DNA from: a virus
Virus record (IMG/VR): IMGVR_UViG_3300032797_000632
Coordinates: 32,001-96,000 of that record
Length of the DNA: 64,000 bases
Strand: one strand, 5' to 3'
This document shows, one piece after another, positions 42,045 to 42,530 of the stretch (the stretch's first letter is position 1; each line of letters begins with the position of its first letter). Under the pieces are notes generated by a model. It did no database searches and had not been told where the DNA came from. It was given only the letters and a program-made list of their open reading frames with translations. Both the position numbers and the translations under genes were made by a program.

Positions 42045-42530
42045 ATGCCGATAAACTGCGAGCAATACCTGGCCGCCCTGCCCAACAGGCAATGCATGGA
42101 GGAGTTCCTTAAGGTGATCCCGAAGCAGGTTCAGCAGGCGATTTCGGCGAGCATCGACATAATAAAAACGGCGTCCACGGCGCAGAAAATTCTCGACACC
42201 TACCTCTATTCGCAGTACCTCGTCGCCCTTGCTGCCTTGCAGTACCAAATCAATGTGCTTAAGGCCCAGTACGCCCCCTTCTTTGAAACGCTTGATCTGC
42301 TGCAGACATATGTCAAACGATATCGAAACTGACCCGGGGCAAATTACCTCTACGGTCAGGTGGAGGCACTGGTGAGGGACAAGGTGGAGGAGATCGAAAG
42401 GAGGAGCTACGACTATTACCGGCTCAAGAGCTTTATCAAGAGGCGATTTACGGATAGCGAGCTCGACAAAATCCTCGAGATGCTGGAGGGCGTCGAGGAC
42501 TGTCTGAACGGGGCGATTTACAACCTGTAG
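42045..42530 (+). CDS. candidate selenoprotein (TGA at codon 96) in baseplate module, 161 aa
   Basis: Frame continues past TGA 42330-42332 (YRN-U-PGANYLYGQ..AIYNL) to TAG 11 nt before the next gene. Confidence 0.7.
42333..42372 (+). promoter_or_regulatory. bacterial SECIS-like hairpin 2
   Basis: Upper stem CCUCUAC/GUGGAGG, loop GGUCAG 21 nt after UGA; imperfect lower stem CCGGGGC/GCACUGG. Confidence 0.65.

Follow-up and report, generated by a model that had tools for sequence, protein, structure and literature searches.

A Probable Phage-Encoded Selenoprotein Gene in the Baseplate Module of a Large Uncultured Phage

INTRODUCTION

Can a phage read a stop codon as selenocysteine (Sec) in a gene for a structural component of its virion? 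The question is raised by positions 42045 to 42530 (+ strand) of a 64,000-nucleotide (nt) stretch of DNA, called the window throughout, which comprises bases 32001 to 96000 of the 126,141-base linear IMG/VR virus record IMGVR_UViG_3300032797_000632 from a large uncultured phage (estimated completeness, 64%). At this locus an open reading frame (ORF) is interrupted by an in-frame TGA at 42330 to 42332, and an earlier reading of the sequence (the original prediction) proposed that the gene encodes a structural selenoprotein located between spike and wedge genes of the baseplate region.

To our knowledge, Sec insertion has been described for cells and for a small number of poxviruses, and only in enzymes. 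The known viral selenoproteins described in the excerpted part of PMC8310308 are the poxvirus glutathione peroxidases. We found no report of a phage selenoprotein in the titles, abstracts, and main texts searched; the papers listed for viral selenoproteins concern animal viruses by title. The words phage, virus, and viral occur 0 times in the main texts of the 2026 review of the prokaryotic selenoproteome (PMC13188914) and of the BSepDB paper.

Here we present evidence that 42045 to 42530 is a probable phage-encoded selenoprotein gene of the baseplate module. We put the probability that UGA 42330 is decoded as Sec, giving a 161-amino-acid (aa) baseplate-module protein, at roughly 65%, based on the conservation of a cysteine at the TGA position in all relatives that lack the stop and on a hairpin design shared with a second interrupted gene of the same phage.

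RESULTS

The ORF starts at ATG 42045, and its first stop, TGA 42330 to 42332, would end a 95-aa product. Past the TGA the frame continues for 65 sense codons (42333 to 42527) to a TAG at 42528 to 42530, and the ATG of the next gene, at 42542, lies 11 nt beyond the TAG. If the TGA is read as a residue (U96), the whole gene (42045 to 42530) encodes a protein of 161 aa, with the TAG as its true stop. The original prediction had described these landmarks correctly, along with a hairpin, CCUCUAC-GGUCAG-GUGGAGG, whose loop begins 21 nt past the UGA. The read-through product has cysteines at positions 5, 17, and 153; Cys5 and the C-terminal Cys had been placed as we found them, while the residue given as Cys16 is Cys17.

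The evidence that carries the Sec reading comes from homologues. Word-based searches alone returned only split relatives, as 95-aa and 52-aa proteins. An exhaustive HMMER search with the read-through product found six proteins at E ≤ 0.001. P0006, which is also 161 aa long and is 46% identical, aligned as one uninterrupted stretch over residues 4 to 161, and the homology runs in the same frame, without a gap, across and downstream of the UGA. P0008 (181 aa) and P0009 (199 aa), from the same search, are more distant, and a profile search added P0010 (178 aa). At the TGA column these proteins read YQN-C-P-G (P0006), S-C-P-G (P0008), T-C-A-A (P0009), and T-C-P-T (P0010), and the whole P0006 cluster (P0006, P0013, P0014, and P0015) has Cys there. 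Synteny yielded further continuous members with Cys, namely, a 169-aa ORF in a 180-kb record (G003/L071; ..YATCPA..), a 156-aa ORF (L076), and a 158-aa ORF (L075). This subgroup is distant (hhalign [A11] against alignment A3, probability 70%, E 4e-5, with Cys-Pro matched), and its ORFs are found at the equivalent position, immediately before a gp25-like gene and Baseplate_J.

Altogether, the residue at the TGA column is Cys in 7/7 lineages lacking the stop (10 sequences, 156 to 199 aa); the gene is continuous in all seven and split in none, and no other residue was found in this column among the relatives lacking the stop. Only 10 columns are invariant in alignment A3, which has four sequences, and these include C5, C17, C96, and C153. 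In all four loci for which DNA is available (L001, L071, L075, and L076), Cys is encoded by TGT or TGC, each a single base change away from TGA. P0009 comes from a 205-kb phage (L001), in which one 199-aa gene at 4995 to 5594 is flanked by homologues of the window's 333-aa protein (E 3e-10), 227-aa protein (E 6e-16), and Baseplate_J protein (37% identity, E 6e-101). The original prediction had looked to syntenic homologues for a continuous protein of ~160 aa with Cys-Pro at this site and had named two separate genes or a non-Cys residue as outcomes that would count against it. P0006 has the expected length and Cys-Pro-Gly, the other lineages are also continuous with Cys, and neither adverse outcome appeared in any relative lacking the stop. 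In PMC1088965, a selenoprotein candidate is recognized when an in-frame UGA coincides with Cys in two or more homologues and TGA/Cys pairs are in the majority, which is the pattern found at TGA 42330.

Judged from the relatives that share it, the interruption is old and both halves have been kept. All four distinct N-terminal pieces (P0011, P0002, P0012, and P0003) are exactly 95 aa long and keep C5 and C17, at identities that include 98% for P0002 and 67% for P0003. The C-terminal pieces of three lineages (P0004/17/18, P0005, and P0007/16; 63 to 83% identical) keep the last Cys. Among these pieces, P0004 is the window's own 52-aa product, P0005 (52 aa) is 81% identical to it, and P0007 is 63 to 66% identical. 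P0003 and P0005 are each recorded on one 19,190-nt Logan contig, which is presumably the same contig, whereas P0007/P0016 come from contigs of 25,098 and 105,688 nt. The first-residue M of some Logan entries does not mean ATG, because P0016 (M) and P0007 (V) are otherwise identical.

This history bears on the possibility that the TGA is a nonsense mutation or an assembly error and the downstream frame a remnant of a knocked-out or decaying gene. A change from TGY to TGA needs a single base, and a long open frame behind a stop can arise by chance: at least 65 open codons follow the stop in 54/174 crude + strand ORFs of the 126-kb record, and such frames are common because the next gene is often in the same frame. 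However, independent assemblies (three Joint Genome Institute [JGI] contigs, NCBI, and Logan) give the same 95-aa product, and in a diverged relative both pieces are conserved (67% and 81%), as is every remaining cysteine. In addition, a 94%-identical contig of 4538 nt from another run (X1) spans the whole of 41700 to 43000 with 78 differences and two indels (41767/41773), and it has no insertion or deletion within 42045 to 42530. We consider a knock-out or error barely credible. Two further runs (X2 and X3) gave short pieces, one of which, an X3 contig covering 42210 to 42360, has one difference. A fourth run (X4) gave no matching contig, which is not taken as a sign of absence. The runs are labeled landfill and freshwater sediment, which serves as a habitat hint only.

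The TGA is followed by a hairpin resembling the upper part of a bacterial selenocysteine insertion sequence (bSECIS), at 42347 to 42366 (+ strand). Its 5' arm is CCUCUAC (42347 to 42353), its loop is GGUCAG (42354 to 42359), and its 3' arm is GUGGAGG (42360 to 42366). The consensus in the excerpted part of PMC13188914 describes a loop of 3 to 9 nt, a stem of 4 to 16 bp, a minimum free energy of −7.5 kcal/mol or below, a G at loop position 1 or 2 that is mostly followed by G or U, and 16 to 37 nt from the UGA to the loop. The hairpin after TGA 42330 fits this description, with a 6-nt loop beginning GG, a stem of 7 bp including one G-U pair, a loop that begins 21 nt past the UGA, and −10.1 kcal/mol. 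These rules are permissive, in that a simplified version was passed by 116/1675 TGAs. The Escherichia coli fdhF element described in the excerpted part of PMC8659212 is a 17-nt upper stem-loop, 11 nt past the UGA, in which U17 is bulged and the loop contains G23/U24. We ruled out a strict element of this type at 42330, where a bulged U is missing and 14 rather than 11 nt separate the UGA from the hairpin.

Taken alone, the sequence features of 42045 to 42530 are at chance level. A hairpin of at least 7 bp follows 132/1676 TGA trinucleotides (7.9%) versus 6.9% of 3000 random positions, and a start codon lies 4 to 9 nt behind 209 of the 684 GGAGG words on the + strand. The candidate exceeds chance only because of the Cys column in all continuous homologues and the hairpin apex that it shares with a second Cys-aligned TGA.

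This second TGA, at 17720 to 17722, interrupts a candidate gene in the head region (17678 to 18436, + strand; KW-U-VRS...GGCYDT), the frame of which reads MEREAYISKEKGKW-U-VRSEKNPSWSGGCYDT.. and is open to 18436. Among 66 related viral loci, the four most similar (L004 to L007, 55 to 67% identical) read KW/Y-C-V..G-C, so that Cys at the TGA column occurs together with a second Cys. The hairpin that follows, CCUCC/UGGUCA/GGAGG (17742 to 17757, + strand), sits atop a 5-bp lower stem, and its loop starts 24 nt past the TGA. A GGUCAGG apex and CCUC..GAGG arms are common to the two hairpins. There is no start codon behind the GGAGG of 17742 to 17757, and the shared design is therefore not a ribosome-binding site. 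Hairpins with GGUC in the loop follow 14/1676 + strand and 8/1476 − strand TGAs and are found at 0.54% of all positions. By eye, only 17720 and 42330 of the 14 + strand sites lie in frames that are protein-like on both sides; the other 12 were set aside as off-frame, with Arg/Pro/Ser-rich translations. One more GGTCAGG, which has a TGA 25 nt before it (21994), was rejected because this TGA lies inside a small ORF but not in its reading frame.

The N-terminal module of the second gene (17678 to 17860; KW-U-V..GGC-YDT..RLAQVE.IKHM) is widespread in T1-like phages of Klebsiella, Escherichia, and Salmonella, where it opens prohead-core or scaffold-like genes (105 GenBank records; loci L008 to L068). 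In most of these distant phages the two Cys positions are occupied by Val and Glu, which suggests that the Cys pair comes and goes as a pair.

TGA is otherwise an ordinary stop in this phage. It ends 59 of the 174 crude + strand ORFs and is the commonest stop on both strands among ORFs of at least 150 aa, and among the hairpin-bearing sites, only two in-frame TGAs have coding sequence on both sides. We therefore rejected a genome-wide reassignment of TGA; since TGA is a normal stop elsewhere, recoding at 42330 would be site-specific. Such recoding might do without selenium, if some ribosomes decoded UGA 42330 with a near-cognate Trp or Cys tRNA, or with a suppressor tRNA that escaped detection, aided by the UGA-C context and by the hairpin that follows; the outcome would be a mix of 95-aa and 161-aa products. 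The in-frame homology across the UGA would be the same for this kind of read-through as for Sec, and the incompleteness of the record means that a phage tRNA could be missing from it. In E. coli, UGA terminates weakly when the next base is C, but this context is not special here, being found at 11/59 TGA stops. ARAGORN detected three tRNAs in the 126-kb record (record coordinates 5553 to 5629, Arg-CCU; 105160 to 105232, Met-CAU; and 116609 to 116684, Thr-CGU), none of which lies in the window or is a UGA-reading suppressor. Moreover, in read-through the residue at the stop matters little, according to PMC8310308, whereas in this phage each of the two in-frame TGAs coincides with a conserved Cys column, a pattern characteristic of Sec. 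We therefore regard selenium-free read-through as very unlikely.

None of the pieces, the read-through product, or the homologues has a significant Pfam or PHROGs family, and a search of the ESM Atlas with P0006 gave no usable match. An AlphaFold2 model built on a 12-row alignment (A8) has a mean predicted local distance difference test score of 85.9 and a predicted template modeling score of 0.56. It consists of helices at 5 to 11 and 15 to 24, a long helix at 27 to 92, a turn at 93 to 96, and helices at 97 to 135 and 139 to 160, with residue 96 at the tip of the helical hairpin formed by 27 to 92 and 97 to 135. Foldseek with this model against BFVD and PDB returned 0 matches at E ≤ 0.001, with generic antiparallel coiled coils only. 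As modeled, the family is one of small all-helical four-cysteine proteins of the baseplate module.

The 13-codon linker between the TGA and the GTG at 42372, PGANYLYGQVEAL (42333 to 42371, + strand), carries the hairpin, and it would be intergenic if there were two genes but coding if Sec is inserted. From its alignment, the linker looks coding. It aligns without a gap to the continuous relatives, including PGVVHMIALVQKY of P0006, and Pro-Gly directly follows the TGA, as it follows the Cys of P0006 and P0008. The GGAGG-to-GTG stretch would be read as the codons Val-Glu-Ala...Val110, and the column of Val110, which is GTG 42372, reads V, M, I, and V in the continuous proteins.

Several observations weigh against Sec decoding. 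The 74-nt hairpin region folds no better than its shuffles (z +0.50; 141/200 shuffles fold as well), and within 41800 to 42800 no Rfam family, SECIS included, matched at E ≤ 10, apart from three chance-level non-SECIS matches. The two genes are 4 nt apart in the distance between UGA and GGUCAGG, and their loops start at 24 versus 21 nt. That 0/8 Cys-form relatives of the two TGA genes for which DNA is available have a hairpin passing the rules speaks for Sec, but this control is weakened because 6/8 are from AT-rich phages (33 to 40% GC) and hairpins are rarer there anyway. No selA, selB, selD, or tRNA-Sec (RF01852) was detected in the 126-kb record, although missing Sec genes prove little because the record is 64% complete. 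The diverged stop-bearing relatives (P0003/P0005 and P0007/P0016) are known from protein records, and the codon itself is read as TGA in the DNA of the window alone. Searches of viral contigs (P0001, A1, A4, and A5), metagenome contigs (A1 and A4), and genome contigs (A1 and A5) did not locate the DNA of these relatives, nor did a search with the window's Baseplate_J alone or tblastn against 50,697 phage records. Finally, the known bacterial selenoproteins are, by the abstracts of the papers on them, mostly redox enzymes and not helical structural proteins.

The remaining points on this side also favor a split gene, in which an ancestral TGY-to-TGA mutation at the tip of the helical hairpin would have left a 95-aa protein (42045 to 42332) and a 52-aa protein (from GTG 42372) that associate noncovalently. 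GGAGG (42362 to 42366) with a 5-nt spacer and GTG (42372 to 42374, + strand) makes a textbook ribosome-binding site and start for the 52-aa ORF. The gene callers behind the JGI, NCBI, and Logan records start a 52/53-aa product at GTG 42372, and they give 95-aa and 52/53-aa products in all members of the clade. The break falls in the turn between the modeled helices 27 to 92 and 97 to 135, at the tip of a helix-turn-helix, where interrupting the chain would do the least harm. The hairpin might then hide the ribosome-binding site until a ribosome terminating at the UGA opens it (translational coupling), and its 5' arm, 14 nt past the stop, is within the usual reach of a terminating ribosome.

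A split gene leaves much unexplained, however. The clade would have dropped one of four invariant cysteines yet kept the other three; there would be no evident reason for a clade that is already 33% diverged to retain Pro-Gly and a 13-residue linker that aligns without gaps; and the C-terminal piece would be short of 13 residues of its helix. The GTG occupies a conserved hydrophobic position of the continuous relatives, GGAGG with a start behind it is common inside genes here at the frequency given above, and coupling cannot explain the twin hairpin after TGA 17720, which has no start behind its GGAGG. Two-gene calls are found only in the stop-bearing clade and in none of the seven lineages lacking the stop. 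The original prediction had itself offered a separate short ORF from GTG 42372, using the GGAGG, as an alternative; both elements are present, but the Val110 column and the frequency of GGAGG weaken the case for it. We consider a split gene unlikely, although it is the chief competitor of the Sec reading.

Nearly all genes of the window are on the + strand. The tail/baseplate module holds, in order, a tail-tube-initiator-like gene (38123 to 38869), a 647-aa ORF, a 333-aa ORF (40729 to 41730), a 98-aa ORF (41720 to 42016), the gene at 42045 to 42530, a 227-aa ORF (42542 to 43225), and a baseplate wedge gene (Baseplate_J/gp6-like, 43227 to 44654). The wedge assignment is solid (Pfam Baseplate_J, 3.9e-22; phrog_6, 5.7e-42). 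The spike-like label of 40729 to 41730 comes from position alone, as this protein has no family match. In L001, a 362-aa ORF upstream of P0009 is homologous to the 333-aa protein, and a 252-aa ORF downstream is homologous to the 227-aa protein.

The 98-aa ORF just upstream of the interrupted gene belongs to phrog_5576, which has no assigned function, and is hypervariable relative to the X1 contig. The interval 41731 to 41938 holds 40 of the 78 differences in the comparison span of 41700 to 43000, and within the 98-aa ORF the X1 contig also lacks 1 nt at 41767 and has 1 extra nt at 41773, two changes that offset each other. In G003, a 229-aa Cys/His/Lys-rich ORF (L071, 785 to 1474, − strand) separates the four-cysteine gene from the gp25-like gene as an insertion, and it is HNH-endonuclease-like by eye only.

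Elsewhere in the window, a 69-codon ORF (21869 to 22078) has a TTG start that abuts the TGA stop of the gene at 21023 to 21868. It ends in TGA-CCC-GGG, nine bases identical to 42330 to 42338. We ruled it out as a read-through candidate, as its frame closes three codons past the TGA. Of the 22 GGTCAGG words on the + strand, 7 are within GGT-rich short repeats, in a part of the record beyond the window (window-equivalent 76266 to 77109).

DISCUSSION

The proposal that 42045 to 42530 encodes a structural selenoprotein is supported by the Cys at the TGA column in all continuous homologues, the in-frame homology on both sides of the codon, and the hairpin. The broader claim, that this phage puts Sec into at least two unrelated virion-module proteins (42045 to 42530 and 17678 to 18436), we hold at about even odds. 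It would do so with its own SECIS hairpins of one design and with SelB and tRNA-Sec borrowed from the host, Sec replacing one conserved Cys in a structural and not a catalytic role.

We propose that the host is a Sec-competent cell, whose SelB-GTP-Sec-tRNA(Sec) complex would bind the hairpin apex GGUCAG and deliver Sec to a ribosome paused at UGA 42330, while ribosomes that terminate at the UGA would produce the 95-aa protein as a by-product. Sec96 probably takes the role of the relatives' Cys, either in a cross-link or in binding a metal. Compared with S-S bonds, Se-S and Se-Se bonds remain intact at lower redox potential. We speculate from this chemistry and the run labels that a Sec cross-link or ligand in the virion might suit anoxic, reducing habitats. 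The second virion-module gene, with TGA 17720, appears to use the same device.

If this reading is correct, Sec has a structural use and not only a catalytic one, and the phage depends on a Sec-competent host and a supply of selenium, which would provide a new host-range marker and link trace-element chemistry to viral ecology in anoxic habitats. Neither structural use of Sec nor a trace-element dependence between phage and host was found in any paper of the literature searched. It would also follow that automated gene calling systematically breaks up or shortens phage genes of this kind; for the gene described here, the databases contain only the 95-aa and 52-aa fragments.

The closest known systems are the bacterial selenoprotein genes that carry a SECIS within the ORF, with E. 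coli fdhF as the prototype. As in these genes, an in-frame UGA stands where homologues have Cys, and a stem-loop follows directly downstream in the coding sequence. The small apical loop beginning with G and then G or U, the spacing of 16 to 37 nt, and an energy below −7.5 kcal/mol are likewise shared, as given in the excerpted parts of PMC13188914 and PMC1088965. The G-U step in the loop is comparable to G23/U24 of the E. coli SECIS in the excerpted part of PMC8659212. Unlike those genes, the gene at 42045 to 42530 is borne by a phage, would encode a small helical virion-module protein and not a redox enzyme, and has been read from sequence alone. It also differs from fdhF in having no counterpart of U17, a longer distance from the UGA to the hairpin (14 and not 11 nt), and no Rfam match.

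The glutathione peroxidases of molluscum contagiosum virus and fowlpox virus offer a second comparison, as they are also cases of a virus borrowing the Sec machinery of its host. They are captured host redox enzymes with a eukaryotic SECIS, however, whereas 42045 to 42530 belongs to a phage structural-module family and has a bacterial-type hairpin immediately after the UGA.

Phages that reassign TAG or TGA genome wide resemble this phage in having an in-frame stop to be read through in a late structural gene. Here, in contrast, TGA is the stop in 59 of 174 crude ORFs, none of the three tRNAs of the record is a suppressor, and only two in-frame TGAs are seen, both at Cys columns. Small phage genes that are translationally coupled through a hairpin-masked ribosome-binding site have the same arrangement of a stop, a hairpin containing GGAGG, and a start 5 nt on. 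The locus at 42045 to 42530 differs from them in that relatives without the stop are continuous, the spacer keeps the residues of the family, and the twin hairpin at 17742 to 17757 is followed by no start.

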